A stretch of DNA of 64,000 nt from Selaginella moellendorffii (Eukaryota; Plantae; Lycopodiophyta). The position numbers were made by a program, and so were the translations under genes. The notes under the pieces were generated by a model that was not told where the DNA came from, made no database searches, and saw nothing but the letters and a program-made list of their open reading frames with translations. The number at the start of each line of letters is the position of its first letter. Within the stretch, counting starts at the first letter, position 1. The DNA lies in assembly GCF_000143415.4 (NCBI RefSeq), contig NW_003314320.1, positions 494,586 to 558,585 on the forward strand. The letters run 5' to 3'. Below are positions 32,129-63,100 of this stretch, piece by piece.

Positions 32129-33883
32129 ATGGCGGCAGCGCTAGCGCCCGCGGCATTGATCCGAGGAGCTGCCACCACGGCGAGCGATGGCCCATTCGCG
32201 GCGGCGACGTCGTCGTCCTCCTCGGCTTTGTTTGCCGCGAGATCGTCGTCTTCCAGGTTCGCGCAATTCGCACTGCGGTGCTCCTCCGCCGCGGGGATTG
32301 GCTGTGGCCGGAGGGCTGTGCTCAAGGTAGCAGCTGCACAGGTGCTCCAAGATGTGCATTTGAGCGAGGAGGCGAGAATGGAGGTCGTGGATGTGGATTT
32401 GAGCGATCGCACCTACCCAATCTACATCGGATCTGGTCTTCTAGACAAGCCAGAGCTTCTCCAGAAGTACGTGAATTCTCTGTTCTCTCTTTCCAGTTCT
32501 CTCAGAAAAACCGATCTTTCTCTACAGACATGTGAAAGGAAAGAATGTGTTGGTGGTGACGAACACGACCGTGGCACCATTGTACCTGGAGAAAGTAGTC
32601 GGGCTTCTCAAGGCAAATGGTTCCAAGATAAATGTGGAGAGCGTTATCCTGCCGGATGGTGAGAAGTATAAGGACATGGTGCGTGGTGTGGTTTGCTCTT
32701 TCTCGTTGTTTACCTTCCTTTCCTTCTCTTTCCAGGGAACTTTGATGAAAGTTTTTGACAAAGCGGTGGAAACCAGAATGGATCGAAGGTGTACGTTCGT
32801 GGCACTGGGAGGAGGAGTGATTGGAGATATGTGTGGGTTTGCTGCTGCGGCTTTTCTCCGCGGTGTGAATTTTATTCAGATTCCAACGACGCTCATGGCT
32901 CAGGTAACTTGCTTTCTAGAACCTAGTTTGTGGAAATTCACAAGATTTTTCTTTCCCAGGTTGATTCGTCAGTCGGAGGGAAGACCGGTGTAAATCATCC
33001 GCTTGGCAAAAATCTCATTGGTGCATTTTACCAGCCTCAGTGCGTGGTTATCGACACGGATACTCTTAGCACGCTTCCAGAGAGAGAGCTCTGTTCTGGA
33101 ATTGCCGAAGTCGTCAAATATGGTTTGATCAGAGACGCGAAGTTTTTCGAGTGGCAAGAGGAAAACATGGACAAGCTGTTGGCCAGGTGACTTTGTTCTC
33201 GATTGGCTCGCTCGTTTGTGAAATTCAAATCATCAGGGACCCGGATGCTCTTGCTTATGCCATCAAGCGTTCTTGTGAGAACAAGGCAGAGGTTGTATCG
33301 CTTGACGAGAAGGAAGCCGGTTTGAGAGCTACATTAAATCTTGGGCATACGTTTGGACATGTAAGCTATCTCTCCCTCGTTTTCTTTTCCTTTCCTTTCG
33401 ATGCTTAGCTTTTTCTTGCAGGCTATAGAAACAGGAATTGGCTACGGTGGTTGGCTGCACGGAGAAGCCGTAGCTGCTGGCACGGTAATTCCCAAACTTC
33501 GACTTATTGCCTCATCATTCATATGTTTATCTTCGCAGGTAATGGCTGCGGATCTCTCATTCCGTCTGGGATGGATAGACGCTTCTCTTCAGTCTCGGAT
33601 CCTAAACTTGCTAAAGCGTGCGAAAGTTCCAGTGGCACCCCCCAGCACAATGACAATCGAAAAGTTTCAAAACATAATGGCGGTATGCAGCTTCGTTTTT
33701 CTAGAGCACAGCGTTTTTCACCAAGAAGCTTGGTTTTGTTTCTTCGTACAGGTAGACAAGAAGGTTGTGGACGGCGATTTGAGACTCATACTACTCAAAG
33801 GCGAGCTTGGAAATTGCGTGTTTACTTCGGCATACGATACCAAAGCTCTTGAAGAAACACTGCATTCCTTTTGTCCCTCATAG
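32129..33883 (+). CDS. DHQS: 3-dehydroquinate synthase, plastid-targeted
   Basis: Ser/Ala-rich transit peptide, [63 protein letters not shown]. Confidence 0.96.
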
Positions 33884-35520: not shown

Positions 35521-35576
35521 TATCGTTCAAGAAGCTCGAACTTTAGAGAGGAAACTACGAACACTCGTGCAAAGCT

Positions 35577-36719
35577 CTAATAATCACGTGGTAAATCGGG
35601 CAAATGTGACAAAATGTTGCGAGACAAGGCTTCCCCACCGTCAGGAATATAGAAGTAAGCTCCCGCATCGATTGGCGCAGTATCAGAGCCCTGTACCAGC
35701 TTGTTAAAGAACGAGTCCACCACCGAATACTCGAACACATCTCTGTCTCCAGTTATCCAAAAGAGGTCATAGTCATCAGACACCACCTCGGCCAACTCAG
35801 GGCTCAGGATATTGGCTGCATCCAGCCGCGTCGGAAGCTCCACCACCTTTCCCTCATCAACCAGTAGCTCATACAGTCTTGGAGTATCGAATCCCCTGCC
35901 CTCTCGTAGCTCTTCCTCCTGGTCAAACACCTTAAGGCCGTACATGAGGGTCTTGCCTCGCCGTTCCACCACCTTTTTTTCTGTCCCAAACTCGAATTTG
36001 CGGGCAGATTCACGGCTCAGGTGCATCTTGTCCCATACTCCACCCGATTCTATAAGCACCAATCCCTCGCAATAGCTGGCAGGGGCGATGAGAAGCCCTA
36101 ATCCACGACCGTGGGCGAGCTGCCAGCGGCAGCATTGGTTCCATAACTTGGAGACGCTGCAGTAGCGTGCCAGATCCCGCCGACCCAGATTTGTGACGAT
36201 CAAAGCTACCAGCTCTTCGCAGCACAATGCCTTCCGTTTAAACCCAAAATGTTTCGAGTTGCTGAGATTCTGGATCAGTTCACGCTTGAGCGGTTTAAAA
36301 GGACACAGGTCAAGAAAGGTCAGGTTTCGTGGTTTCTTCGTGCAGCATTGTCTTGAGGGATGCCTATTCCGGGAAATGTTGCGATCATAGTAGTCTAAGA
36401 GCTTGTGCAGAGTGTTTCCCAGGCCACTGAATTCATCTCCGTGGAGCCGCTCGACAGAGAAAGGGGGACGCAATGCTCGCGAGGGCGATTTTATCGGGCC
36501 GCCATCTTCCAAACCTCTGCCAAGAGCCACTATGTTTACTTGAGGAGATGTCGATCTCAAAGAAGAGCGTCTCCAGCCGTGCTTGCTCGGGAGCGAGGTC
36601 CGAAACCAGCTCGTGAGCAATGACTTCCACGATTTGGACAATGGAGTGCATTTCCGTACCGCTAGATACTTGTCTTTCACGTAGACCATGGCTATGGCGC
36701 GTGCGCTGTGGGGCGCCAT
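35577..36719 (-). CDS. Chimeric, internally deleted F-box gene (possibly pseudogene)
   Basis: EELVALIVTNL..DLARYCSVSKLW F-box preceded by ~165 unrelated residues; lacks two blocks present in the 39073 paralogue. Confidence 0.6.
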   Translation of the reverse strand: MAPHSARAIAMVYVKDKYLAVRKCTPLSKSWKSLLTSWFRTSLPSKHGWRRSSLRSTSPQVNIVALGRGLEDGGPIKSPSRALRPPFSVERLHGDEFSGLGNTLHKLLDYYDRNISRNRHPSRQCCTKKPRNLTFLDLCPFKPLKRELIQNLSNSKHFGFKRKALCCEELVALIVTNLGRRDLARYCSVSKLWNQCCRWQLAHGRGLGLLIAPASYCEGLVLIESGGVWDKMHLSRESARKFEFGTEKKVVERRGKTLMYGLKVFDQEEELREGRGFDTPRLYELLVDEGKVVELPTRLDAANILSPELAEVVSDDYDLFWITGDRDVFEYSVVDSFFNKLVQGSDTAPIDAGAYFYIPDGGEALSRNILSHLPDLPRDY

Positions 36720-38790: not shown

Positions 38791-39072
38791 CGTTTTTGCT
38801 GACCTGGACTTTCGCTGACATGTTGTGTGCTCACAAATAAATCACATCAATTGTTAGCCGCTACAAATCTGTTGGACTTGGTAACCATGGATGCAGGTCT
38901 CTCATCTGCAAAAGAAATTCGACGTCTAGCACCTCCCACTTCACAACCCCATCACAGTAAATCACACTTGGCTTGATGAACTCCAAGTAAAGAACCGTCA
39001 CCTTCTTGGGAAGTGTATTTCCACGAATGAGAAAATGAACTGCACCTCCGGGTGACACTACGACACAATGCT

Positions 39073-40141
39073 CTAATAATCATGTGGTACATCAGGCAAA
39101 TGTGACAAAATGTTGCGAGACAAGGCCTCCCCGCCGTCAGGAATATAGAAGTAAGCTCCCGGGAGGTATAAATTCGGCGCAGCATCAGAGCCCTGTACCA
39201 GCTTGTTGAAGGACAAATCGGCCACCGAATACTTGAACACATTTCTGTCTCGAGTTATCCAAAAGAGGTCATAGTCATCAGACACCACCTCGGGCAACTC
39301 AGGGCTCAGGATGTTGGCTGCGTCTAGCCGCGTCAGAAGCTCCACCACCTTTCCCTGATCAGCCAGTAGCTCATACAGTCTTGGAGTGTCGAATCCCCTG
39401 CCCTCTCGTAGCTCCTCCTCCTGGTCAAACACCTTAAGAGTATACATGAGGGCCTTGCCTCGCCATTCTACCACCTTTTTCTCTATCCGGAGGCACTCGA
39501 ATTTGCGAACAGATTCACGTCTCATGTTCATCTTGTCCCACACTCCACGCCTCAGATCCAGCTTGTAAATATCATCAAACACGTAGTCATGCCCATGCGT
39601 CAACTTTTCGAAGAGCCTGTAGCAGCCGCCCCTGAGTAAGACGCATTCCTCGATAAGAGCGATCCTCCTCGACGGGCGGCAAACATCTATCCAAGAATCG
39701 TTGGCGAAATCGTACTTTTGCACGGCGCCGGACTTGTCGATGATGAGGATGAGAAGCTGGCCTTGCACACGACCCAGCCAAGCCGATATTGCATCAATCC
39801 GCGGCCTCCACAAGAGCTTCCATCGCTTCACGCTGGGCTCGCCAATCGCCAGCACCCCATCCGATTCTATAAGCACCAATCCCTCGCAAGTTCCCAGCAC
39901 AGCCGAATCAGAGATACCTAGTGGCACCCACTGCTCCTCCCCAGTGTTGGAATCGCGCATCCATAGCTTGGATCCTTCGGTAGGGGCGATGAGAAACCCT
40001 AATCCGCGGCCGTGGGCGAGCTGCCAGCGGCAGCACTGGTTCCACAGCTTGGAGACGCTGCAGCACCGTGCCAGATCCCGCCGACCCAGATACGTGACGA
40101 TCAGAGCTACCAGCTCTTCGCAGCACATCACCATCGCCCAT
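39073..40141 (-). CDS. F-box protein with beta-propeller-like C-terminus; intronless
   Basis: MCCEELVALIVTYL..DLARCCSVSKLWN, CEGLVL, EP..KRWKLL, YDFANDSW; C-terminus appears to continue in another frame to ~38861. Confidence 0.75.
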
Positions 40142-41204: not shown

Positions 41205-41885
41205 TAGTTGTTTTCTAGAACAGTTTGTGGAACGATTCTTTTTCCCAGTTTGGAAGACCAGTCAGTGTGAATCATCGCTTGGGGCAAAAGTCTCATTGAT
41301 GCATTTTACCAGCTTATCGACACGGATTAGCACACTTCCAGGTGACTTTGTTTTCGATTGGCTCGCTCGTTCGTGACATTCAAATTATCAGGGACCCGGA
41401 TGCTCTTGCTTATGCCATCCAGCATTCTTGCGAGAACAAGGCAGAGGTTGTATCGCTTGACGAGAAGGAAGCTAAATCTTGGGCATATGTTTGGACATGT
41501 AAGTTCTCTCTCCCTAAATTTTCTTTTTCCTTTCCAGTCGATGCTTCTAGGCTATAGAGACAGGAATTGGCTACGGAGGTTGGCTGCACGGAGAAGCCGT
41601 AGCTGCTGGAACCGTAAGTGCCAAAACTTCGATTTTTTGCTTCCTAATGGCTGCGGATCTTTGGGATGGATAGAGACTTCTCTTCGGCCTCGGATCTTAA
41701 ATTTGATAGAGCGTGAAAGATCCAGTTGCACCCCCCAGCACAATGACAGTCGAAAAGTTTCTGGAGCTTCGTTTTCCTAGAGTAGAGCAAGAAACATGGT
41801 TTTCTTCTTTCTTACTGCTAGAGAAGATGGTTGTGGACGGGGATTTGAGACTTATACAACTCAAAGGCGAGCTTGGAAATTGCAT
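41205..41885 (+). pseudogene. Degenerate duplicate of the 3' half of DHQS, introns retained
   Basis: Colinear with 32910-33817 ([45 protein letters not shown]); frameshifts and deletions. Confidence 0.9.
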
Positions 41886-41899
41886 TAAGCTTTTCTAAG

Positions 41900-44629
41900 C
41901 TATGCGTCTTTCACCACTCTCGCGGAGCTCGTTTCGGGGCTACCAACATATGCGTAGTCCCTTTCTTCAAATGGCAGTGGAACAACTTTGATTGCGCGGT
42001 ATTTACCAACGTTGTTAACATGCTCGTTCTCCAAGCTTTGATCACAGAGAAATCAAATAAGTAAACTCAATTAAGTTAATAAAATACTTACCGGAATACG
42101 TTCCACATTCCCCGCCTACAAATCTCAAAGGCTGCCAAGATGAATTCCAAACCGAAGCTTTTAGTCGCACCCAACTCCAGGTGGAATAGCGAGAATAACC
42201 ACAGCAACCTGAGCAGTGTGTTTATAAGCTGTGTGTGCAAAACCACAGTTAAAGCTAAGATCACAACAACGAAAAATTCTTACCATGCAACTGTAGTAGA
42301 GTGACTTGCGCTCAAACATGAGCTTGTCCCGAAGCCACCGGTTCGATGCCTTTTTTTGTAAAAGCCCCCAGTCCATGACAAGGTCCCAGTAGAGCTGATA
42401 AGCAGTAGCACAGAGCGAAGACAGCACAAACATGGATTTCCATGCCGCTGTTCCACTCCACTTGTACGTGATTTTCATAACCATCGCAACAATAGCGCTC
42501 AGGTACTTGCCGGCGTTTGCAAGATGAACGGGATCCCGCAGGTCCACCCATCTTCTCAAGCTCTGAAATCGAGAACTTTGAGAGCGCTCACTTTCTTTTA
42601 AAGAAGGGGAAGATTACCTGCATAAGACGCCACCAGTATGCTATCACCACGAGAGGGTACTGCAGCGCAAACTTGGAGGTGCAAGACTCTCCATTGCTGG
42701 ATTCGTAGTTGTTTCCACCGTAGTAGCAGAGAGTAAACCCGAGGTTCTTTAGAGCAGTGACCTACAAAGAAAGGCAAGCGGTTATGATTTCGATGAGCAG
42801 AGTCGCACACCTGGCTTGTAAGTTGGTCCGCAAGGAAGAAATCCGCAAGCTCAACCTGAAATTCCCCGTCCACTAGTGAGACTGGAATTTATCATTGGAC
42901 AAGTCGAACCTTGAATAGAGGTGCAACCATGATCCGCAAGAGAGAATAGAAAAGACCCGACCTTGCCGGTTTGTAAAAGACATTGAAAGGAAGAACGAGA
43001 ACTCCGATCCACACCTGCTTATGGAGCGAACCAGATTAGCGAAGGCAAAGACGGAATAGTTCTTACCAAAAGAGCTCCGAGCGGAACAAACTCACGAAAC
43101 TTGTCTGACGTAGTGGGGATCGTATACAGAACAAGATAAAAAACCATGGCCGCAATCAAAAGCATTGTGATCAACGTGCTCAGCAGCAGCACGTCTTGGT
43201 ATTTAAGCTGCGACCGAGGTTCAAACTCGAAAATATATGCATAGTTGATCCTGGATTTTCTCCAAATGTAGATGTTGCAAGCATACACATACATGTGTAG
43301 CAAGAACAATACAAGTGTGCTGCCAAGTAGAACAAACGGAGTGTATCAGCATGTAAACGTTGCAAAGCTACCTGAACATTGGGAAGGCAATTTGGACGCT
43401 AGGAAACTTGTGGTTGTGTGGTAGTGTCAGGAGTAGAACGAACGTGACGATAAGACTGAAAGAACAGCCCGTGAATAGCCCTGGAAAACTTTCACAGGTG
43501 AGAAACAATAGCCACTGTATACATGCAGCTTTCCAACCAAGAACGAAGTTTAGATTCGAGGATGGTTGCCTCATCGGTTGCATACAGGCTAAAGCCTTCC
43601 TTCGATTTCCTTTTAGAAAATAGTCTGTAAACATGGACATCACTTGTTCCATCATTCGGAGGATCTGCAACCATGAACACAATTGCGTGAGATACACCAG
43701 TTATACCTTATAATTTCCACACCTTATCAGAAGTTGAGAAATGCGACATATTAACAGCTCGCAGATATGTTTCTGACGCACATTTGCCTGTAACCTGGAA
43801 AAAACAAAGACCAAACACAATTCAGGCACAACGAAGAAGACCTTGGCATAATAACCTTATCGTGTTTTTTCAGAATTTTGCCGAAAGCCATTCTGTTCAG
43901 TGCGCTATAATTCTTGAGATGGCCAAGGCTTCTATAAAACTCGATAAATCCAGCTCGCAAAAGCTTCGCCGCCTGAGCAGGATTTGTTCCCGCAAAGACC
44001 TCACCGCCATCTGAAGGATGTAAAGTCCACGTCAAACCCATAAAAAGCACTTGAAAGACGTAACCTTTGGAGGATCCTTGATTTTCAAAGAGAAGCTCAA
44101 GCTGACTTTGTAGCTGTCGAGCATGAGAGACATACTCGTTCTCTTTATGCTTGTAGAAATAGTTAATGTTGTTGAGTTGAGAGTCCAGCTTCGCGAAAAA
44201 CAGTCTCACATATTCCGCATCGGAGGAAGGTCCACGCAGCTCAGTCTCGTACACAACCTCGTCCTGGACATAAGTCCGAAGGCTTTTCTTGTGTACTACC
44301 TGGAACAAGAATTACAATCTCAGAAACAAAAGAACGAGTAAATAAATTACCATGAAATCGTTGCTTTCTTCGACCCAGCTGTCGGCAACCGACGAGCTTC
44401 CAAATAAACTCCTCAGCCTCGAGCCCTGACTAGGAGAACGCGACGACTCTCCAAACAGGCTCCCTAGCTCTTGAATCCTGTTTACTGTATCAACATCAAT
44501 CTTTACCCTCGTGGCAGCTTGATGATCGTGCTTGACTTTCTTTAGATCTTTCTTGAGCTGCTTGTAGTTGAAATATGAATCGCGCCAATCTGGAACTCGA
44601 TGCCATTCGAGGTGCTTCTGAAACTTCAT
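41900..44629 (-). CDS. PHO1: SPX-EXS phosphate exporter, PHO1 family
   Basis: [108 protein letters not shown]. Confidence 0.93.
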
Positions 44630-48097: not shown

Positions 48098-48147
48098 TGT
48101 AAGCCACAAATTTTTCCTTTCCAATTTGCCAGCTTACCTCGCCTATC
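48098..48147 (-). mobile_element. Terminal 50 bp of the 3' LTR of chromovirus copy 2 (interrupted by copy 1)
   Basis: Reverse complement of the LTR end (...GAGGTAAGCTGGCAAATTGG..GTGGCTTACA); no adjacent PBS, flanked by host DNA. Confidence 0.88.
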
Positions 48148-51100
48148 TGTAAGGAACCAACTCCCCGAGATGTCGTAGGTTAAAGGATCCCCAAAAGCTT
48201 GACCGAAATGACAAAGAGTTCATCGGATGGGACCAAGTCGAGGATCGAGTCCAAGACCGACTCTAGGACCGAGTTCGAGATAGAGTCCGGAATCGAGTCC
48301 GAGACCGACTCGGGGACCGAGTTCGAGTCCGAGTTCGAGACCGAGTTCGAGACGGAGTCCGGATCCGAAATCGGGTCCGAGACCGAGTCCGAGGTCGAGT
48401 CCGAGGTCGGGTCCGAGATCGGGTCCGAGATCGAGTCCGTGATCGAGTCCGAACCCGAATCCGAAGTCGGATCCGAAATCGGGTCCGAGATCGAGCCAGA
48501 GACTAAGTCCAAATACTAATACGGGTCAAGGGGTGAAAGCCCAAAGCGTGCGTCTCCCAAGGGGGGGGGGGCTGCAGGGGGTTCCAAAAGTATAGTAGGG
48601 ATAGTGAGGTCCAGGAACCAGTTTTGAAGGGACTCTCCAGTTGGGCTTCCAAACCGACTTGAGGTTGAGACTGGGACCGAGGGGCCTTGGGTGGGAGTGA
48701 GCATGGACTTGGCTGGTGCCGGAGGGGCCATCCAAGGAAGTGCTCAAGAGCAGCTCCCACTCCCGAAAGGGAAACCGATTGCGGTGCTCCCGGCTCATGT
48801 GGAGTGGTGCCCCACTTGAGTACCATGCGGCTCATTGGTCCTCGCCCTTCCTAGGGGCTTGGGCCTTCCTTCGGGATGGAAGTGGGGGGCGAGAGGTACC
48901 CATACCGGGCCGCTAGGCCACGGTGTTTCGCCCCGGCATCCCGAAGCAAGTGTTGCACTCAAGACTTGGGATTTAGAGGGTCCCATGATCAAGTCTTGTG
49001 GTACCAAGGGATGTTAGGAACCTGGAAGCTTGGTGTGCTTGGCTGCTTGTGCTTGCGGGGAGTGTAGCCGAACCTTAAGTCCAGTCTAACCCGGGGAGGG
49101 GGATTGGGAGTGATTTGGGAATCCGTGGAAGGATGACTAACACCCCGTTGCTCGTGCAGTGAGTAGCTGAAACCAAGTAGGAGCTGGTACCATAGGCGAG
49201 AACCTTGGCGAGGGGACTTAGCAAAAGCCAAGGCAGTGTTGGACGGATAGACGAGGTAAGCTGGCAAATTGGAAAAGAAAAATTTGTGGCTTACAATTTG
49301 GTATCGGAGCTTTTATCTCAGTTCTAGCGAAGGATAGAGGCGGATTGCTGGGAGATGGCAAGGGCAGGGCGTAAGCAAACCCAGGCGGAGACGGAACCTC
49401 CGCCGGAGCTGGAGCCTCCGGTTGAACAAGAGGCTATGGATGAGGAATCCTTGCATGAGGAGGACTCTAGTGAGGAAACTTCCAAACAGGAGTCCGGTGG
49501 CGAGGTTCGGTCGTCCAAGGCTCGATTGGACGTGCTAGAAGGACAGTTGGCACAGACCAATGCCCTGTTGGAGACTCTCGTACGCAAGTTAAAGCGTGAC
49601 GAGAAGCGGAAGAAAAAGCGAAAGACTGCGGATGAAGGCAGCGCAGAAGGTGCGGACCCTTCGGCAGGGACTGAGGCAAAACCAGACAAGGTCGAACAGA
49701 CCGAAGTGGAATCAGTCCCTCAGGCAGTTCCCAAGTACAAACCAAAGCCCCCACCGGTGTTCAAGGGAGTGAACGACTATAAGGTTGTGGAGGATTGGTT
49801 TTACGATATGGAGGACTACTTCCGAGCGTTACGGTTACCGAGCTCGGAGAAGGTCCCATGTGCAAAACCATACTTGGCAGATAATGCCAAGTCTTGGTGG
49901 AGAACAACGGAGGCCAATGAAGGACCGGTGACCACCTGGGACATGATGAAGGTGAGGATCCGCGCGACATACGTTCCTCCGAATGCCACTCTGCATCTGA
50001 GAGATGAGCTGAGTAGGCTGAAGCAGACTGGAACCATCCAGGAATATGTGAATGGGTTCATGGCAAAGAGGATACTTGTCACGGACATGGGGGATATGGA
50101 TGTTTTCCATGCCTTTATATCAGGTTTGCAAACCTGGGCTCGCGGTGAGGTGATGCGCTGGAACCCGACCAACTACAAGGAAGCGTTGGATGCGGCCATC
50201 AAGGTGCATTTCAACGATAACCTGCGAAAGGGGAACACGACGGGGTCGGGATCCACGTTTCACAAAGGGGCCAAACCGAGGGGAACATATAGCAGGGGGA
50301 AATTCAAGAAGAGTTTCTCTAAGAATGAGTCCTCGGGATTCCGGAAAGGCAAATCCGGTGGCCAGCGAGCAAGTACGTGGGGGAGTCAAGCGAAAAGAGA
50401 CAAACCCATGGATAAGAAGGTCAAGTCATATAGCAGCGTGGGAAACAACGTATGCTACAACTGCGGTGAAGCGGGACACTTTTCGAGGGAATGTCCCTAC
50501 CCGAAGAAGGCCAGAGCCAATATGGCCATCAAGTCGGGTGAAGTCCAAAATGAGGTATGTGATCCAGTCCCTAACTCAAAGTTACTCATTACACGAGCAA
50601 CTTTGGTAGAGAGTCGTTCGCGACATCTACTAGCCCTCCGAGGGAAGCTCGGAGGTAGCTTTGTTAAGATCCTTATTGACAGGGGTGCTTCGGATAATTT
50701 TGTGGCTGCAGACATAGTCCGGCAAGCCGGACTAACGGTGCAGCGGCTAGGTGAACCAAGGACTATAGAGTTTGTTCAAGGTAGCCAAAGCACCAATGAG
50801 GTACTTCGACAAGCGAGAGTCGAAGTGGGGACATGGAAAGTGGACATGGATTTCACCGTCTTGGACATGGCGGGATTTGACGTGATCTTCGGAATGGATT
50901 GGTTTAATCGGTTCGTGGTAGCCCTGCATGGACAAGGTAGGAACCTTGTGGTATTGGCGAATGCCCAAGGAAGAAGATCTAGGGTGGAGGCCCAGGATCT
51001 AAAGGTAGGGCAAAGCAAGGCCAAAGAGTCATGCTTAAACCTGGTGTCCACGAGAGGACAACTCACTAAAGGAACTAAGGCAGCCTTTTTGTGCTTACTC

Positions 51101-52884
51101 TCGGTGAAGAGTGACAAAAAGACAAGAACGGAAGAAGTACCTTTAGTGATCCAGCAGGTGCTGGACCAATTCCAGGATACGATGCCGGAGGAGCTACCGG
51201 CGGGGTTGCCCCCCGCACGACCGATAGAACATAAGATTGAGCTAGTCGAGGGTGCTGAGGCGGTGGTTCGTCCACCCTATCGATTGAACGAAAAAGAACT
51301 CAAGGAGCTCAAGAGCCAACTAGAGGAGTTGGTGGACAAAGGGTATGTTAGGTTGAGCAAGTCGCCGTATGGGGCGCCGGTGCTATTTGTGAAAAAGAAA
51401 GATGGATCTATGCGCATGTGCATAGACTACCGGTTGCTCAACAAGTATACCAAGAAGAACAAGTACCCTTTGCCAAGGATCGAGGACCTGTTCGATAGGT
51501 TGGGAAAGGCAAAATACTTCTCGAGGATTGACCTAAGGTCAGGATACTACCAGATCAGGGTAGCTGAGGAAGATGTCGAGAAGACAACCTGTCGAACGAG
51601 GTATGGGAGCTTTGAGTTTCTGGTGATGCCCTTTGGGCTGTGCAATGCGCCGGCAACGTTTTCGGCGTTGATGAACCACATCTTTGTACCCTATCTGGAT
51701 CACTTCGTGGTCGTCTATATTGACGACATCCTGATCTATAGCGAGATGCTAGAGGAGCATGCCGAACACTTGGCGAAGGTGTTTGAGAAACTAAGGGAAC
51801 ACAAACTGTATGCTAAAGAGAGCAAATGTGACTTTGCTCAACAAGAGGTAAAGTTTCTCGGGCATGTGGTGGGCCAGGACGGGCTCAAGGTGGACCCGGA
51901 GAAGGTCCAAGCGATCCAGGATTGGGAGAGACCATCGAATGTACATGAGTTGAGGGCATTCCTGGGGCTATGCAACTACTATCGAAAGTTTATCAGACAC
52001 TATTCGAGAGTAGCCCTGCCCTTAACGGACCAAACAGGAAAAGGGAAGATGGTATGGACAGCAGAATGCGAGACGGCATTCGTCCACCTCAAAGGGAAGT
52101 TGAGGAAGGCTCCCGTATTGGCATTGCCAGACTTTGGTAAGGACTTTGAGGTAGAAACGGATGCTTCGGACTTTGCGTTGGGCGCAGTTCTGAAGCAAGA
52201 CAACCATCCGGTAGCGTTCTTCTCGAAGAAGCTGGACAAGGCTCAACGGAAGTGGCCTGCCCACGAGAAGGAATTGTTTGCGGTGGTCAAGGCACTCAAG
52301 GAGTGGCGACACTACCTTGGGAGACACTTCAAGGTTTACACGGACAATGTGGCAACGAAACACTTCTTGTCACAGCCCGACCTAAGAGGGAAACAAGGTC
52401 GGTGCGCCAATGCCTTAGCCGAGTTTGATTGCGAAATTCTGTACAAGCCTGGGAAGAGCAACATCGTGGCGGATGCGCTAAGTCGAAAAGCGAGCTTGAA
52501 GTTGGCAATATCCAGCGCAACAGCAACCTTCTGGGACGATGTGCGGACAGCATATGAGAACGATGGTCTAGCACAGGAAGTGTTGCTGAGGAATCTAGAG
52601 GCGCGGGAAGCTCACCAGAGAGGTGAGCTGCCAACGGAAGAGAAAACGGGCTATGCAGAACGCAACGGACTCATTTATTACAAGCAAACGAGGGTGTATG
52701 TTCCAGAAGGGGAACTAAGGAAGGTGGCCTTAGAAGAGTGTCATGACGGACCTCTTGCGGGACACGGTGGAGTGCCCAAGACGATGGGCTTACTCAAAAG
52801 GAAGTACCATTGGCCAGATATGGCTAAGGACATCCAAGACTATGTAAAGACATGCCCAAAATGTCAGCAGGTAAAAGCCGTGAC
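48148..52884 (+). mobile_element. Ty3/gypsy chromovirus copy 1, 3'-truncated (5' LTR 48148-49295, PBS 49299-49310)
   Basis: LTR TGTAAGG..CTTACA; PBS TGGTATCGGAGC (tRNA-iMet type); gag-pol breaks off after the integrase HHCC motif. Confidence 0.95.
48230..48510 (+). repeat. Degenerate hexamer array (GAGTCC/GAGACC/GAGTTC/GAGATC) in the LTR; also at 53430-53695 and 59800-60065
   Basis: 6/12-bp periodicity seen directly in all three LTRs. Confidence 0.92.
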
Positions 52885-52951
52885 CAGGCACAAGCAGCCA
52901 AGCACACCAAGCCTCCAGATTCCTAACACCCCTTGGTACCACAAGACTTGA
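49355..52951 (+). CDS. Gag-Pol (Gag, CCHC knuckle, protease, RT, RNase H, integrase N-terminus), truncated
   Basis: [21 protein letters not shown] (DTG changed to DRG), [30 protein letters not shown]; last ~22 aa read from the antisense LTR. Confidence 0.92.
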
Positions 52952-55900
52952 TCATGGGACCCTCTAAATCCCAAGCCTTGGGTGCAGCACTTGCTTTGGG
53001 ACGTCGGGGCGAAACACCGTGGCCTAACGGCCCGGTATGGGTACCTCTACCCCCCCTCTTCCATCCCGAAGGGAAGGTCCAAGCCCCTGGAAGGGCGAGG
53101 ACCAAAGAGCCACAAGGTACTCAAGTGGGGCACCACTCCACCTGAGCCGGGAGCACCGCAGTCGGTTTCCCTTTCGGGAGTGGGAGCTGCTCTTGAGCAC
53201 TTCCTTGGATGGCCCCTCCGGCACCAGCCAAGTCCATGCTCACTCCCACCCAAGGCCCCTCGGTCCCAGTCTCAACCTCAAGTCGGTTTGGAAGCCCAAC
53301 TGGAGAGTCCCTTCAAAACTGGTTCCTAGACCTCACTATCCCTACTATACTTTTGGAACCCCCTGCAGCCCCCCCCCCCTGGAAGACGCACGCTTTGGGC
53401 TTTCACCCCTTGACCCGTATTAGTATTTGGACTTAGTCTCTGGCTCGATCTCGGACTCGATTTCGGATCTGACTTCGGATTCGGTCTCGGACTCGATTTC
53501 GGACTCGATCTCGGACCTGACCTCGGACTCGACCTCGGACTCGGTCTCGGACCCGATTTCGGATCTCGGACTCTGTCTCAAACTCGGTCTCGAACTCGGA
53601 CTTGAACTCGGTCCCCGAGTCGGTCTCGGACTCGATTCCGGACTCTATCTCGAACTCGGTCCTAGAGTCGGTCTTGGACTCGATCCTTGACTTGGTCCCA
53701 TCCAATGAACTCTTTGTCATTTTGGTCAAGCTTTTGGGGATCCTTTAGCCTACGACATCTCGGGGAGTCGGTTCCTTACAACTCCACCACCCATAGAAGA
53801 AGTTCGATGCCCACATCGAACGTCTCATTTTATCCTACGACTTGTTGACCATGTCTCTGGGGGCATCCCCCCACTTAGCAGTGTGCCTAAGTTAGCCTCC
53901 CCGGCCAAGAGCCCATGACAACGGAATATAGGTGTCCCTATACTCCTCACCTCACCATGCCCTAGTATGGGGTCGGGACTTGAACCCAGCCTTGCTTTAC
54001 TAGGGGGTTGGGACTCGAACCCAACCTCCGTAGAATACGTCTACGGATTCGACATCCCCGCGGGGAGTCGGGCGTAGTGCCCTACGCCTGGTCGACCTAT
54101 CCAACCCATGCTAATTAGCTTACCTTTGGCGCGCCTTCGGGTCCCAACATATTGCACTTGCTCAACTTTGCAAATTGATATTTTTAATTGAATTTTGCAT
54201 AAGTACATAGAGTTCTGCCTTGCAGAAATTCCTCCACTAGATCTCGAGCGTTCGCTAGGTTCTCCTCCGGTTCCCATGTTGCTTCGCAGTGTGGAAATCC
54301 TTTCCACTTCACATGGAACTCTCTCACCTCGCGTCCTTGTCGCTTGCTTTTGCGCACATTGAGGATGGCCTCGACTTCGTATTCCTCTTCCCCTTGGATA
54401 ACCTCAGGCAAAGGTCTCACTTGGTCCTTGCGAAGCGGATCCTCAAAGTACGGCTTGAGTAAGTTCATGTGGAACACTGGGTGCATCTTCCCCATCTCTC
54501 GAGGAAGTCGGAGTCGCTAAGCCACTTTACCGATTCGTGCCTCAATCTCGTAAGGCCCCGCGAACCTGCTTAAGGAACTCAAGATCAATTCATTTACAGG
54601 AATACATGCATCTTTACCTTTGGGTCAACTTTCGGCTGATCCCACTTGGTAGTCTGAGGTTCTTGGTGTTCAGCCACACCTTCTCCCCAGCTTGGAACTC
54701 TACATCCCGACGCTTCTGGTTCGCGTATTTGGTTTGCCTTTGTTGAGCCCGTTCCAAGGAATCCCTCACTAGATTCCAAATGCTGAGTCTTTCCGCTGTG
54801 AATGCCTCCACTGCGGGCAACTCTCCATGATACTCGGCCACGCCGAGTTCCACAGGACCTTCAATAGCTCGCCCATTGATGACTTCCCATGGACTCACCC
54901 CGATACTCGAATGTGGTGAGTTGTTATAACACATTTCTGCAAGTCCCAAATGACTTACCCAATCGGTCTGGTCTCCCGAGACATAGCATCGCAAATAATC
55001 CTCCAACTGCCTATTCACCCTTTTCGTTTGTCCGTCTGTCAAGAAGTGTTAGTGCCAACAACTTGACTTAATACCCCATACCTGTCTGTGGGTGATAGGC
55101 TGTGCTGAATTTCAACTTGGTGCGATACTGTTCGAGGAGAGTCCTCCAGAACCTACTGGTGAAGATCTTATCTCGATCTGAGATGATCTCTTCTGGTCTT
55201 CCCCGCACTCGAACCACTTGCTCAAAGAACAGCTTTGCCACACCTTCCGCATCCACCTCCGTTGTGGTGGGTATGAAATGTGCCATTTTTGAAAATCGGT
55301 CCACCACCACGAATATCGCATCAAACCCCTCGCTTGGGGGGAGTCCCGTGATGAAGTCCATCGTAAGACATTTCCACGGGCGATCTGGAATTGGGATGCT
55401 TTGCAACAAGCCCCCACTAGCCTTAGTCACGGCTTTTACCTGCTGACATGTTGGACATGTCTTTACATAGTCTTGGATGTCCTTAGCCATATCTGGCCAA
55501 TGGTACTTCCTTTTGAGTAAGCCCATTGTCTTGGGCACTCCACCGTGTCCCGCAAGAGGTCCGTCATGACACTCTTCTAAGGCCACCTTCCTTAGTTTCC
55601 CTTCTGGAACATACACCCTCGTTTGCTTGTAATAAATGAGTCCGTTGCGTTCCGCATAGCCCGTTTTCTCTTCCGTTGGCAGCTCACCTCTCTGGTGAGC
55701 TTCCCGCGCCTCTAGATTCCTCAGCAACACTTCCTGTGCTAGACCATCATTCTCATATGCTGTCCGCACATCGTCCCAGAAGGTTGCTGTTGCGCTGGAT
55801 ATTGCCAACCTCAAGCTCACTTTTCGACTTAGCGCATCCGCCACAATGTTGTTCTTCCCAGGCTTGTACAGAATTTCGCAATCAAACTCGGCCAAGGCAT

Positions 55901-58900
55901 TGGCCCACCGACCTTGTTTCCCTCTTAGGTCGGGCTGTGACAAGAAGTGTTTCGTTGCCACATTGTCCATGTAAACCTTAAAGTGTCTCCCAAGGTAGTG
56001 TCGCCACTCCTTGAGCGCCTTGACCACCGCAAACAATTCCTTCTCGTGGGCAGGCCACTTCCGTTGAGCCTTGTCCAGCTTCTTCGAGAAGAACGCTACC
56101 GGATGGTTGTCTTGCTTCAAAACTGCGCCTAACGCAAAGTCCGAAGCATCCGTTTCTACCTCAAAGTCCTTACCAAAGTCTGGTAATGCCAATACAGGAG
56201 CCTTCCTCAACTTCCCTTTGAGGTGGACGAATGCCGCCTCGCATTCCGCTGTCCACACCATCTTCCCTTTTCCTGTTTGGTCCGTTAAGGGCAAGGCTAC
56301 TCTCGAATAGTGTCTGATAAACTTTCGATAGTAGTTGCATAGCCCCAGGAATGCCCTCAACTCATGTACATTGGATGGTCGCTCCCATTCCTGGATCGCT
56401 TGGACCTTCTCCGGGTCCACCTTGAGCCCGTCCTGGCCCACCACATGCCCGAGAAACTTTACCTCTTGTTGAGCAAAGTCACATTTGCTCTCTTTAGCAT
56501 ACAGCTTGTGTTCCCTTAGTTTCTCAAACACCTTCGCCAAGTGTTCGACATGCTCCTCTAGCGTCTCGCTATAGATCAGGATGTCGTCGATATAGACGAC
56601 CACGAAGTGATCCAGATAGGGTACAAAGACGTGGTTCATTAGCGCCGAAAACGTTGCCGGCGCATTACATAGCCCGAAGGGCATCACCAGAAACTCAAAG
56701 CTCCCATACCTCGTTCGACAGGTTGTCTTCTCGACATCTTCCTCGGCTACCCTAATCTGGTAGTATCCTGACCTTAGGTCAATCCTCGAGAAGTATTTTG
56801 CCTTTCCCAACCTATCGAACAGGTCCTCAATCCTTGGCAAAGGGTACTTGTTCTTCTTTGTATACTTGTTGAGCAAGCGGTAGTCTATGCACATGCGCAT
56901 AGATCCATCTTTCTTTTTCACAAATAACACCGGCGCCCCATACGGCGACTTGCTCAACCTAACATACCCTTTGTCCACCAACTCCTCTAGTTGGCACTTG
57001 AGCTCCTTGAGTTCTTTTTCGTTCAAACGATAAGGGGGACGAACTACTGCCTCAGCACCCTCGACCAGCTCAATCTTATGTTCTATCGGTCGTGCTGGGG
57101 GTAGCCCCGCCGGTAGCTCCTCCGGCATGGTATCCTGGAATTGGTCCAACACCCGTTGGATCACTAAAGGTACTTCTTCCATTCCTGTCTTTTTGTCACT
57201 CTTCACCGAGAGTAAGCACAAAAAGGCTGCCTTAGTTCCTTTAGTGAGTTGTCCTCTCGTGGACACCAGGTTTAAGCAGGAATCTTTGGCCTTGCTTTGC
57301 CCTACCTTTAGATCTTGGGCCTCCACCCTAGATCTTCTTCCTTGGGCATTCGCCAGTACCACAAGGTTTCTACCTTGTCCATGCAGGGCTACCACGAATC
57401 GATTGAACCAGTCCATTCCGAAGATCACGTCAAATCCCGCCATGTCCAACACGGTGAAGTCCATGTCCACCTTCCAAGTCCCCACTTCGACTCTCGCTTG
57501 TCGAAGTACCTCATCGGTGCTTTGGCTACCTTGAACAAACTCTATAGTCCTTGGCTCGCCTAGCCGCTGCACCGTTAGTCCGGCTTGCCGGACTATGTCT
57601 GCAGCCACAAAATTATCCGAAGCACCCGTGTCAATAAGGATTTTAACAAAGCTACCTCCGAGCTTCCCTCGGAGGGCTAGTAGATGTCGCGAACGATTCT
57701 CTACCAAAGTTGTTCGTGTAATAAGTAACTTTGAGTTAGGGACTGGATCACATACCTCTGTTTGGACTTCACCCGACTTGATGGCCATATTGGCTCTGGC
57801 CTTCTTCAGGTAGGGACATTCCCTCGAGAAGTGTCCCGCTTCACCGCAGTTGTAGCATACGTTGTTTCCCACGCTGCTATATGACTTGACCTTCTTATCC
57901 GTGGGTTTGTCTCTTTTCGCCTGACTCCCCCACGTACTCGCTCGCTGGCCACTGGATCTGCCTTTCCGGAACCCTGAGGGCTCATTTTTAGAGAAACTCT
58001 TCTTGAATTTCCCTCTGCTAAACGTTCCCCTTGGCTTGGCCCCTTTGCTAAACGTGGATCCCGACCCTGTCGTGTTCCCCTTTTGCAGGTTATCGTTGAA
58101 ATGCACCTTGATGGCCGCATCCAACGCTTCTTTGTAGTTGGTCGGGTTCTACCGCATTACTTCGCCGCGAGCCCAGGTTTGCAAACCTGATATGAAGGCA
58201 TGGAACGCATCCATATCCCCCATGTGCGTGACAAGTATCCTCTTTGCCATAAACCCATTCACATACTCCTGAATGGTTCCGGTCTGCTTCAGCCTACTCA
58301 GTTCGTCCCTTAGATGCAGAGTAGCATTCGGAGGAACGTAAGTTGCGCGAATCCTCGCCTTCATCATTTCCCAAGTGGCCACCGGTCCTTCATTGGCCTC
58401 TGTCGTTCTCCACCAAGACTTGGCATTATCTGCCAAGTATGGTTTTGCACATGGGACCTTCTCCGAGCTTGGTAATCGCAATGCTCGGAAGTAGTCCTCC
58501 ATATCGTAAAACCAATCCTCCACCACCTTATAGTCATTCACTCCTTTGAAGACCGGTGGGGGCTTTGGTTTGTACTTGGGAACTGCCTGAGGGACTGATT
58601 CCACTTCGGTCTGTTCGACCTTGTCTGGTTTTGCCTCAGTCCCTGCCGAAGGGTCTGCACCTTCTGCGCTGCCAGCATCCGCAGTCTTTCGCTTTTTCTT
58701 CCGCTTCTCGTCACGCTTTAGCTTGCGTACGAGAGTCTCTAGCAGGGCATTGGTCTGTGCCAATTGTCCTTCTAGAACATCCAATCGAGCCTTGGATGAC
58801 CGAACCTCACCACCAGACTCCTGTTTGGAAGTTGTCTCACTGAAGTCCTCCTCATGCAAGGATTCCTCATCCATCGCCTCCTGTTCGACTGGAGGCTCCA

Positions 58901-60150
58901 GCTCTGGAGGAGGTTCTGTCTTTGCCTGGGTTCGCTTACGTCCTGCCCTTGCCATCTCCCAGCAATCCGCCTCTATCCTTCGCTAGAACTGAGGAAGACG
59001 CTCCGATACCAAATTTTAAGCCACAAATTTTTCCTTTCCAATTTGCCAGCTTACCTCGCCTAACCGACCAACTCTGCCTTGGCTCGCACTAAGTTCCCTC
59101 GCCAAGGTTCTCGCCTATGGTACCAGCTCCTACTTGGTTTCAGCTACTTACTGCACGAGCAACGGAGTGTTAGCCATCCATCTACGGATTCCCAAATCTC
59201 TCCCAATCCCCCTCCCCGGGTTAGACTGGACTTAAGGTTCGGCTACACTCCCCGCAGGCACAAGCAGCCAAGCACACCAAGCCTCCAGATTCCTAACACC
59301 CCTTGGTACCACAAGACTTGATCATGGGACCCTCTAAATCCCAAGCCTTGAGTGTAGCACTTGCTTCGGGACGTCGGGGCGAAACACTGTGGCCTAACGG
59401 CCCGGTATGGGTACCTCTACCCCCCCTCTTCCATCCCGAAGGGAAGGCCCAAGCCCCCGGAAGGGCGAGGACCAAAGAGCCACAAGGTACTCAAGTGGGG
59501 CACCACTCCACCTGAGCCGGGAGCACCGCAGTCGGTTTCCCTTTCGGGAGTGGGAGCTGCTCTTGAGCACTTCCTTGGATGGCCCCTCCGGCACCAGCCA
59601 AGTCCATGCTCACTCCCACCCAAGGCCCCTCGGTCCCAGTCTCAACCTCAAGTCGGTTTGGAAGCCCAACTGGAGAGTCCCTTCAAAACTGGTTCCTAGA
59701 CCTCACTATCCCTACTATACTTTTGGAACCCCCTGCAGCCCCCCCCCCCTGGAAGACGCACGCTTTGGGCTTTCACCCCTTGACCCGTATTAGTATTTGG
59801 ACTTAGTCTCTGGCTCGATCTCGGACTCGATTTCGGATCTGACTTCGGATTCGGTCTCGGACTCGATTTCGGACTCGATCTCGGACCCGACCTCGGACTC
59901 GACCTCGGACTCGGTCTCGGACCCGATTTCGGATCTCGGACTCTGTCTCGAACTCGGTCTCGAACTCGGACTCGAACTCGGTCCCCGAGTCGGTCTCGGA
60001 CTCGATTCCGGACTCTATCTCGAACTCGGTCCTAGAGTCGGTCTTGGACTCGATCCTTGACTTGGTCCCATCCAATGAACTCTTTGTCATTTTGGTCAAG
60101 CTTTTGGGGATCCTTTAGCCTACGACATCTCGGGGAGTCGGTTCCTTACA
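52885..60150 (-). mobile_element. Chromovirus copy 2: 5' LTR 59015-60150, PBS 59000-59011, internal region, PPT ~53782-53792, remainder of 3' LTR 52885-53780
   Basis: Near-identical LTRs 6370 bp apart; complete gag-PR-RT-RH-IN-chromodomain order. Confidence 0.95.
54184..58955 (-). pseudogene. Gag-Pol-chromodomain of copy 2 with introns 55036-55081 and 54566-54617
   Basis: After removing both introns the frame is continuous except TGG>TAG at 58149-58151 and TAC>TAG at 54517-54519; integrase catalytic E is K; chromodomain YEVEAIL..FHVKWKGF..TWEPEENL. Confidence 0.9.
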
Positions 60151-63100
60151 ACTCCACCACCCATAGAAGAAGTTCGATGCCCACATCGAACGTCTCGTTT
60201 TATCCTACGACTTGTTGACCATGTCTCTGGGGGCATCCCCCCACTTAGCAGTGTGCCTAAGTTAGCCTCCCCGGCCAAGAGCCCATGACAACGGAATATA
60301 GGTGTCCCTATACTCCTCACCTCACCACGCCCTAGTATGGGGTCGGGACTTGAACCCAGCCTTGCTTTACTAGGGGGTTGGGACTCGAACCCAACCTCCG
60401 TAGAATACGTCTACGGATTCGACATCCCCGCGGGGAGTCGGGCGTAGTGCCCTACGCCTGGTCGACCTATCCAACCCATGCTAATTAGCTTACCTTTGGC
60501 GCGCCTTCGGGTCCCAACATATTGCACTTGCTCAACTTTGCAAATTGATATTTTTAATTGAATTTTGCATAAGTACATAGAGTTCTGCCTTGCAGAAATT
60601 CCTCCACTAGATCTCGAGCGTTCGCTAGGTTCTCCTCCGGTTCCCATGTTGCTTCGCAGTGTGGAAATCCTTTCCACTTCACATGGAACTCTCTCACCTC
60701 GCGTCCTTGTCGCTTGCTTTTGCGCACATTGAGGATGGCCTCGACTTCGTATTCCTCTTCCCCTTGGATAACCTCAGGCAAAGGTCTCACTTGGTCCTTG
60801 CGAAGCGGATCCTCAAAGTACGGCTTGAGTAAGTTCACGTGGAACACTGGGTGCATCTTCCCCATCTCTCGAGGAAGTCGGAGTCAGTAAGCCACTTTAC
60901 CGATTCGTGCCTCAATCTTGTAAGGCCCCGCGAACCTGCTTAAGGAACTCAAGATCAATTCATTTACAGGAATACATGCATCTTTACCTTTGGGTCAACT
61001 TTCGGCTGATCCCACTTGGTAGTCTGAGGTTCTTGGTGTTCAGCCACACCTTCTCCCCAGCTTGGAACTCTACATCCCGACGCTTCTGGTTCGCGTATTT
61101 GGTTTGCCTTTGTTGAGCCCGTTCCAAGGAATCCCTCACTAGATTCCAAATGCTGAGTCTTTCCGCTGTGAATGCCTCCACTGCGGGCAACTCTCCATGA
61201 TACTCGGCCACGCCGAGTTCCACAGGACCTTCAATAGCTCGCCCATTGATGACTTCCCATGGACTCACCCCGATACTCGAATGTGGTGAGTTGTTATAAC
61301 ACATTTCTGCAAGTCCCAAATGACTTACCCAATCGGTCTGGTCTCCCGAGACATAGCATCGCAAATAATCCTCCAACTGCCTATTCACCCTTTTCGTTTG
61401 TCCGTCTGTCAAGAAGTGTTAGTGCCAACAACTTGACTTAATACCCCATACCTGTCTGTGGGTGATAGGCTGTGCTGAATTTCAACTTGGTGCGATACTG
61501 TTCGAGGAGAGTCCTCCAGAACCTACTGGTGAAGATCTTATCTCGATCTGAGATGATCTCTTCTGGTCTTCCCCGCACTCGAACCACTTGCTCGAAGAAC
61601 AGCTTCGCCACACCTTCCGCATCCACCTCCGTTGTGGTGGGTATGAAATGTGCCATTTTTGAAAATCGGTCCACCACCACGAATATCGCATCAAACCCCT
61701 CGCTTGGGGGGAGTCCCGTGATGAAGTCCATCGTAAGACATTTCCACGGGCGATCTGGAATTGGGATGCTTTGCAACAAGCCCCCACTAGCCTTAGTCAC
61801 GGCTTTTACCTGCTGACATGTTGGACATGTCTTTACATAGTCTTGGATGTCCTTAGCCATATCTGGCCAATGGTACTTCCTTTTGAGTAAGCCCATCGTC
61901 TTGGGCACTCCACCGTGTCCCGCAAGAGGTCCGTCATGACACTCTTCTAAGGCCACCTTCCTTAGTTTCCCTTCTGGAACATACACCCTCGTTTGCTTGT
62001 AATAAATGAGTCCGTTGCGTTCCGCATAGCCCGTTTTCTCTTCCGTTGGCAGCTCACCTCTCTGGTGAGCTTCCCGCGCCTCTAGATTCCTCAGCAACAC
62101 TTCCTGTGCTAGACCATCATTCTCATATGCTGTCCGCACATCGTCCCAGAAGGTTGCTGTTGCGCTGGATATTGCCAACCTCAAGCTCACTTTTCGACTT
62201 AGCGCATCCGCCACGATGTTGTTCTTCCCAGGCTTGTACAGAATTTCGCAATCAAACTCGGCCAAGGCATTGGCCCACCGACCTTGTTTCCCTCTTAGGT
62301 CGAGCTGTGACAAGAAGTGTTTCGTTGCCACATTGTCCATGTAAACCTTAAAGTGTCTCCCAAGGTAGTGTCGCCACTCCTTGAGCGCCTTGACCACCGC
62401 AAACAATTCCTTCTCGTGGGCAGGCCACTTCCGTTGAGCCTTGTTCAGCTTCTTCGAGAAGAACGCTACCGGATGGTTGTCTTGCTTCAAAACTGCGCCT
62501 AACGCAAAGTCCGAAGCATCCGTTTCTACCTCAAAGTCCTTACCAAAGTCTGGTAATGCCAATACAGGAGCCTTCCTCAACTTCCCTTTGAGGTGGACGA
62601 ATGCCGCCTCGCATTCCGCTGTCCACACCATCTTCCCTTTTCCTATTTGGTCCGTTAAGGGCAGGGCTACTCTCGAATAGTGTCTGATAAACTTTCGATA
62701 GTAGTTGCATAGCCCCAGGAATGCCCTCAACTCATGTACATTGGATGGTCGCTCCCATTCCTGGATCGCTTGGACCTTCTCCGGGTCCACCTTGAGCCCG
62801 TCCTGGCCCATCACATGCCCGAGAAACTTTACCTCTTGTTGAGCAAAGTCACATTTGCTCTCTTTAGCATACAGCTTGTGTTCCCTTAGTTTCTCAAACA
62901 CCTTCGCCAAGTGTTCGACATGCTCCTCTAGCGTCTCGCTATAGATCAGGATGTCGTCGATATAGACGACCACGAAGTGATCCAGATAGGGTACAAAGAC
63001 GTGGTTCATTAGCGCCGAAAACGTTGCCGGCGCATTACATAGCCCGAAGGGCATCACCAGAAACTCAAAGCTTCCATACCTCGTTCGACAGGTTGTCTTC

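Follow-up and report, generated by a model that had tools for sequence, protein, structure and literature searches.

Can an LTR retrotransposon, which replicates through RNA, keep introns inside the gene for its own integrase? Textbooks treat the loss of an intron as the proof of retrotransposition, and transposition reporters are built on it. The question is raised by a 64,000-nt stretch of the Selaginella moellendorffii genome (positions 494,586 to 558,585 of contig NW_003314320.1), referred to below as the window, in which the integrase of an LTR element is interrupted by two short inserts with GT..AG ends. A sequence-only reading had taken these inserts for obligate spliceosomal introns. 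Published accounts are cited here from the parts of each paper that were available.

Three copies of one LTR element lie within the window (Table 1). Copies 2 and 3 are arranged in tandem on the minus strand. They have one LTR of 1136 nt in common and a repeat unit of 6370 nt, and differ at 33 of 4746 nt (99.3% identity). Copy 1 is truncated before the integrase introns, and its leader and protease splice sites are kept; within the nested region (48098-52887), a later deletion took its 3' part together with about 190 nt of the 3' LTR of copy 2. Pfam analysis gave the domain order Gag-PR-RT-RH-IN with a C-terminal chromodomain in exon C (E = 6.7e-17). By this order, its LTRs, its primer-binding site and its purine-rich tract, the element fits a Ty3/gypsy chromovirus. 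The primer-binding site we take to be of the tRNA-Met type, as in PMC3350952. The LTRs have TG..CA ends; CA is kept in copy 1 and in the 3' tail of copy 2, and in the shared LTR the terminal dinucleotide is altered. All copies in the window are dead: the catalytic Glu position is occupied by Lys in copies 2 and 3, and their last exon contains a stop. At the sites of these lesions most family DNA reads carry other bases, so the lesions are private to the copies in the window. The premature stops of the near-identical twins differ and lie in adjacent codons of the last exon (54514-54519 and 60884-60889).

Table 1. Positions in the window of the element copies, their coding exons and their introns.
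Feature	Position	Strand	Description
LTR common to tandem copies 2 and 3	59015..60150	-	1136 nt; poly-G tract, 12-bp minisatellite
Leader intron	58989..59054	-	66 nt, GTAAGC..CTCAG; one X15 contig
Primer-binding site TGGTATCGGAGC	59000..59011	-	taken as tRNA-Met type; next to LTR
Coding exon A	55082..58955	-	Gag, CCHC, protease, RT, RNase H, integrase zinc finger, first two catalytic Asp
Private stop in gag, copy 2	58149-58151	-	in exon A
Alternative protease intron	57599..57755	-	157 nt, phase 0, GTATGT..CTGCAG; X15 contig
Integrase intron 1	55036..55081	-	46 nt, phase 1, GT..AG, CACTAAC branch-like site
Coding exon B	54618..55035	-	remainder of integrase core
Integrase intron 2	54566..54617	-	52 nt, phase 2, GT..AG; inside KLxxRFxGPY motif
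Coding exon C	54184..54565	-	GPY/F and SH3-like tail, chromodomain
Private stop in exon C, copy 2	near 54517	-	
Purine-rich tract of copy 2	53782-53792		
3' LTR of copy 2, first 894 nt	52887..53780	-	885/894 identical to shared LTR
3' LTR of copy 2, last 50 nt	48098-48147		
Copy 1	48148..52884	+	about 95% identical; reversed, nested in 3' LTR of copy 2
Leader intron in copy 1	49256-49321	+	same length and ends
Protease intron in copy 1	50555-50711	+	
Intron 1 in tandem copy 3	61406..61451	-	identical
Intron 2 in tandem copy 3	60936..60987	-	identical

Several other features of the window were recorded. The 12-bp minisatellite in U3 (48184-48519, 53389-53702 and 59759-60072) forms an open Glu/Ser/Thr-rich frame of 111 codons in copy 1 and is shifted in copies 2 and 3. 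The sole TATA-like site found in the LTR is at 59719. An unspliced contig from run X17 would start about 30 nt downstream of it (about 59689, by arithmetic), and a leader beginning there would hold five upstream ATGs. Between pol and the 3' LTR lies a non-coding stretch of 403 nt (53781-54183), a candidate export or packaging element, for which no Rfam match was obtained. Elsewhere, a multi-intron host gene at about 42000-44629 on the minus strand is presumably of the SPX/EXS (PHO1) type, judging from its N-terminus. Repeats spaced by about 300 nt at 29196-31677 resemble a PPR gene, and two segments are duplicated locally, with decay of the second copy (33183-33817 / 41338-41883 and 35570-36226 / 39066-40127).

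The element matches SM1-Galahad, described from S. moellendorffii by Novikov et al. in 2012 (PMC3350952), on a comparison of published description and lengths rather than of the consensus sequence. SM1-Galahad is given as 7.5 kb long, with LTRs of 1076/1146 bp containing poly-G and a tRNA-Met primer site, and as present in hundreds of copies of 95% identity with LTR structure. Its consensus ORF of 3885 bp (1295 aa) lacks a chromodomain; two further ORFs, 316 and 309 bp long, lie downstream, one of them with a group I chromodomain. The element in the window measures 7506 bp, with LTRs of 1136 and 1148 bp, an ORF of 1295 aa and ATG ORFs of 318 and 309 bp. The published family is a broken one, with "no intact copy", whereas here the breaks are spliced introns and a leader and a protease intron are added; neither "intron" nor "splic" occurs in the available text of the paper. 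The consensus ORF stops where intron 1 stops the frame in the window, and since that consensus was drawn from many copies, it supplies independent evidence for a family-wide insert. We adopt the placement in the Galadriel clade from PMC3350952; some Selaginella chromoviruses are left unclassified in the part of PMC6317226 available. The element had earlier been called Tcn1-like, which proved wrong, as SM1-Galahad has a tRNA-Met primer site. SM-Tcn1 of the Tcn1 clade, with a length of 5.7 kb, LTRs of 440 bp, continuous pol and no tRNA primer site, was rejected as its identity. The sister family SM2-Galahad is reported as intact, with one unbroken ORF of 1577 aa, hundreds of copies and the same primer type (PMC3350952); the spliced product here would be 1557 aa long. 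As the ORF of SM2-Galahad is unbroken, the introns were likely gained in the SM1-Galahad lineage.

Re-reading of the sequence bore out the coordinates, the lengths of 46 and 52 nt, the GT..AG ends and the in-frame stops previously given for the two inserts. Intron 1 has a 5-nt direct repeat at its edges and lies inside the catalytic core, ahead of the third catalytic position; if it is retained, the reading frame ends after HPQTGMGY. Retention of intron 2 brings a stop right at the donor and leaves an integrase without GPY/F tail and chromodomain. The claim that removal of the first insert restores exactly 35 residues between the second catalytic Asp and the Glu position also held. This spacing is obtained only with intron 1 removed, and it is 35 in all 109 homologue motif matches in which both sites could be located (123 proteins). 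There are nine GT..AG pairs in the region of intron 1 whose removal could mend the frame; the RNA uses exactly the proposed pair. The A+T content is 0.59 in intron 1 and 0.65 in intron 2, as against 0.49-0.50 in the exons. The inserts of copy 3 are identical as had been noted, but they are not independent evidence, copy 3 being a 99.3% tandem twin. A supposed match to host intron sizes was not sustained, with an unreliable exon chain for the host gene and candidates of 52 and 55 nt. The introns fold no better than shuffled sequences (z +0.23, +0.16, -0.83 and +0.73), and the same applies to a hairpin apparent over the 3' end of intron 1. The Rfam search returned nothing real, and elsewhere in the window the intron sequences do not recur, which gives no sign of a mobile intron family within it.

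Splicing was assessed in six of the nine runs recorded or guessed as RNA, which were compared with the window. X15, X17 and X18 are guessed to be RNA, with 26 Mb of contigs in X15 against about 200 Mb for DNA runs; X22 is a recorded RNA-seq run of which about 12% was read. The spliced junctions of both inserts, named beforehand as the test, were found. In a 2500-nt X15 contig of about 97% identity, stretches of exactly 52 and 46 nt, bounded by CT..AC, are skipped. The junction of intron 1 was also present in X22, which is from a separate study, where one raw read skips 46 nt with 46 letters on its short side and is oriented as the LTR reads are. In X18, from a third study, there are contigs that stop at 54563 and 55082, and their depths of 2.02 and 2.71 reappear beyond each intron; from these ends and depths we infer that the X18 contigs fit both splices. 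In X17, from a fourth study, a contig is unspliced across intron 1 and contigs extend into intron 2; a single short contig from X18 that carries adapter sequence also lies inside intron 2. The source of these unspliced contigs may be either genomic RNA or DNA. Pol is not covered in X23 and X24, and expression in the raw RNA runs was very low (33, 7 and 16 reads). Frameshifting or read-through at the inserts was rejected because the RNA removes them. With GT..AG ends and precise excision in RNA, the inserts fit U2 spliceosomal introns, and we regard it as nearly certain that they are real and spliced.

Two further patterns were seen in the RNA runs. At 59190, reads (15, 3 and 9 in X22, X23 and X24) and an X15 contig follow the sense of the LTR and exit into unrelated sequence, likely reflecting an LTR fragment elsewhere that drives a chimeric transcript. 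At 53900-54080 and 54443-54985, a few X22 reads are oriented opposite to the LTR reads, which suggests antisense transcription over the 3' part.

The sequence-only reading would have failed if the inserts were confined to the tandem pair. This was not so, as both introns are present at family-wide depth in DNA, including copies diverged to 86-90% identity. In DNA run X1, from which 65,150 contigs were aligned, the depth inside intron 2 was 779,112, with 0.63-1.2 million in coding-region bins. Inside intron 1 it was 217,048-277,218, and other single places were as low (157,108 at 57471). Contigs of 87% (X1) and 90% (X7) identity span intron 1 unspliced, and the main X7 contig spans intron 2. 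One-base insertions occur inside intron 1 in X1, so indels of 1 nt are tolerated there. None of the 15 joints listed for DNA (depth 209-465; at least 92 more joints lie beyond these) skips an intron; the long single-variant contigs had depths of 121-160, and rare variants are dropped by contigs. On this evidence intronless DNA copies are at most very rare, and one or two are possible. Inheritance of the introns throughout the family is in our judgement highly probable. The 99% likeness between the LTRs of copy 2 indicates that elements with the introns are young.

The coding sequence also bears the mark of the spliced frame. In exon B, 11 of the 13 listed differences of the X15 contig fall at third positions and are synonymous when the spliced frame is read (p = 2e-4), compared with one of 13 at third positions in the unspliced frame. 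In the worst case, with the four unlisted differences all counted against, the ratio is 11/17 (p = 0.008). Third-position differences make up 19 of 22 in exon A and three of five in exon C, a ratio that is uninformative. Between copies 1 and 2, 113 codons differ synonymously and 41 non-synonymously in 1176. Exon B, read in the spliced frame, shows purifying selection.

No close member of the family, and no relative with a break at this position, emerged from the protein searches. The best identities were 54% over an N-terminal query and 56% in another search, and exon B as query gave partial matches only. The 274 homologous proteins collected, none of them from the SM1-Galahad family, included 105 without a strict motif match. 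Among 180 motif occurrences, 169 continue in a DGQ-like manner, 11 are other variants and none resembles the break in the window. A metagenome scan yielded 11 loci, all fragments or chance-like; none covers the site of intron 1, and one (L005) continues across the site of intron 2 without an insert.

The earlier reading stood for the integrase introns and missed two others, one in the leader and one in the protease. In X15, contigs show four GT-AG excisions in total. The 66-nt and 157-nt joints are exact GT..AG excisions from a variant like copy 1, and the letters between match the exon ends of copy 1 at 30/32 and 3/3 positions. The leader intron contains the last 40 nt of U5, the end of the LTR and the whole primer-binding site. 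Its splice was seen in one contig of one run, separate from the contig with the integrase splices, and an X17 contig is unspliced across it. The donor and acceptor of the leader intron are kept in copies 1 and 2, although six interior bases differ. Excision of the protease intron removes the DTG active-site motif and places a Thr codon and a stop after the acceptor, with a predicted Gag-only product of 401 aa. In X17, one contig has a break at 57600 that leaves 28 letters over, a weak indication, and another runs through the protease intron.

A leader intron that removes the primer site, together with the protease intron, points to a likely mechanism. We propose, with a probability of roughly 0.62, that SM1-Galahad keeps host-spliced integrase introns since splicing of the leader strips the primer site from its mRNA. 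One LTR transcript would then have several fates. Unspliced RNA, with the U5 end and the primer site, would be the packaged genome, and it would encode at most Gag-PR-RT-RH and a broken integrase. In reverse transcription the primer site is required both to prime and to complete plus-strand transfer, and the attachment end comes from U5. An outline of these roles of primer site and U5 is also given in the available text of PMC7197481. In leader-spliced RNA, minus-strand priming and plus-strand transfer would be impossible and there would be no attachment end, so that it would be pure mRNA. Among the mRNAs, those that undergo the 157-nt splice would provide excess Gag; those that retain this intron and lose introns 1 and 2 would encode a Gag-Pol of 1557 aa with the whole chromo-integrase. 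Because the mRNA pool would be locked out of replication, introns in pol would no longer be purged. Template switching onto co-packaged mRNA could still purge them, and selective packaging would therefore be needed too. We infer that integrase is made from spliced mRNA and unspliced RNA is packaged, with no active intronless copy acting in trans.

A further-reaching version is held more tentatively, at somewhat less than even odds. Here the genomic RNA would be unable to encode integrase, and the deletion of primer site and attachment end by splicing, which would lock every mRNA out of reverse transcription, would have freed pol to gain host-like introns that set the amounts of Gag, RT and integrase, with intron 2 as a switch for the insertion site. 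Retention of intron 2 alone would yield a second integrase without chromodomain. In Tf1, activity and specificity are altered when the chromodomain is lost (cited in PMC3350952), and a targeting switch by retention of intron 2 is possible.

Other explanations share parts of this evidence. The introns could be real, spliced and inherited, with genome and mRNA divided by some other device and the leader splice minor. The division could lie in a separate promoter or an uncapped RNA pool as in BARE, in export of unspliced RNA as in Cer1, or in a packaging signal within an intron. The pools of BARE are separated by two TATA boxes and the R domain (PMC3735527), and Cer1, according to the source text available, exports its unspliced RNA through the CERV protein. 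The 403-nt stretch downstream of pol could hold an export element, and the leader splice was seen once, beside an X17 contig unspliced at that place. However, the leader splice sites have been kept in two copies that differ between them, and neither the Rfam search nor the folding of the introns revealed a structured signal. We consider this explanation unlikely.

Alternatively, rare intronless masters or SM2-Galahad might supply the enzymes that copy the intron-bearing family, and splicing would be incidental to mobility. SM2-Galahad is reported as an intact family of hundreds of copies with the same primer type (PMC3350952), and the few intronless copies that may exist, together with the very low expression in raw RNA, would accommodate such a supply. 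Against it stand the purifying selection on exon B in the spliced frame and on gag-pol between the copies, which a passive passenger would not maintain, and it leaves the keeping of spliced introns unexplained; we judge it improbable. Still further from the data is the suggestion that the spliced-looking contigs are a processed DNA copy or assembly artefacts, and the inserts old debris amplified as DNA. X15 and X18 have no RNA record, and copies 2 and 3 in the window are indeed a tandem duplication. Yet four separate GT-AG excisions occurred in one run, the junction was read in a recorded RNA-seq run and in none of the listed DNA joints, and hundreds of copies have LTR structure (PMC3350952), which makes this explanation very improbable. 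We therefore retain the loss of the primer site through leader splicing as the preferred reading.

If so, a successful family with introns in the catalytic core of its integrase would indicate that an LTR element can fully separate its genome from its mRNA. This would provide a testable rule for the keeping of introns in retroelements, a matter still open for Penelope elements, and a case of recent intron gain to set against the intronless sister family SM2-Galahad. Families filed as broken or non-autonomous in genomes with small introns may be intact once spliced.

Some recombinase genes of Ngaro and DIRS elements hold introns. These were not mentioned in the available part of PMC3783388. The literature searched yielded neither an account of integrase introns in an LTR element nor one of a primer-site intron as the reason for keeping introns; Repbase and subscription journals could hold one of the former. 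The available parts of PMC5718144, PMC13148404, PMC12477816, PMC9804982, PMC7197481 and PMC3783388 contained nothing further on integrase introns. Five small supplementary files of PMC6317226 gave no match, and its large tables could hold such a note.

Each piece of the arrangement can be compared with a known system. In a 2025 review, Ogre and EVADE are the only plant LTR elements with introns named in the text available (PMC12786077). In Ogre, as here, a stop-bearing intron is removed from some transcripts to give the whole polyprotein and is kept in DNA (PMC6317226, PMC12786077); an intron of the Ogre type was nevertheless rejected for this element, in which PR-RT-RH are in one frame and the introns lie inside integrase. 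EVADE and other Ty1/copia elements share the protease intron with a stop just past the junction, giving Gag only, but their integrase has no introns (PMC5580714), and Arabidopsis gypsy elements show no such conserved protease splice in the same source as far as available. Barley BARE1 likewise has separate RNA pools for translation and replication and a small intron that produces a Gag-only mRNA, and no copies in DNA of this spliced transcript are reported in the available text (PMC3735527). Unlike SM1-Galahad, it is a Copia element in which promoter, cap and R domain divide the pools, and it encodes the whole Pol unspliced. [quoted passage not shown] From that stated layout we deduce that foamy-virus Pol mRNA would lack the primer site; however, the splice is one large subgenomic one to an intact pol ORF, and no enzyme is interrupted. 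Penelope-like elements also retain spliceosomal introns, among them one in the 5' leader that lies across the terminal-repeat boundary, and the significance of the introns is called unknown in PMC8557442. In contrast to SM1-Galahad, they are not LTR elements and have no integrase, primer site or particle. SM1-Galahad is thus a known family with an unrecognised, RNA-supported architecture, each piece of which has a precedent.
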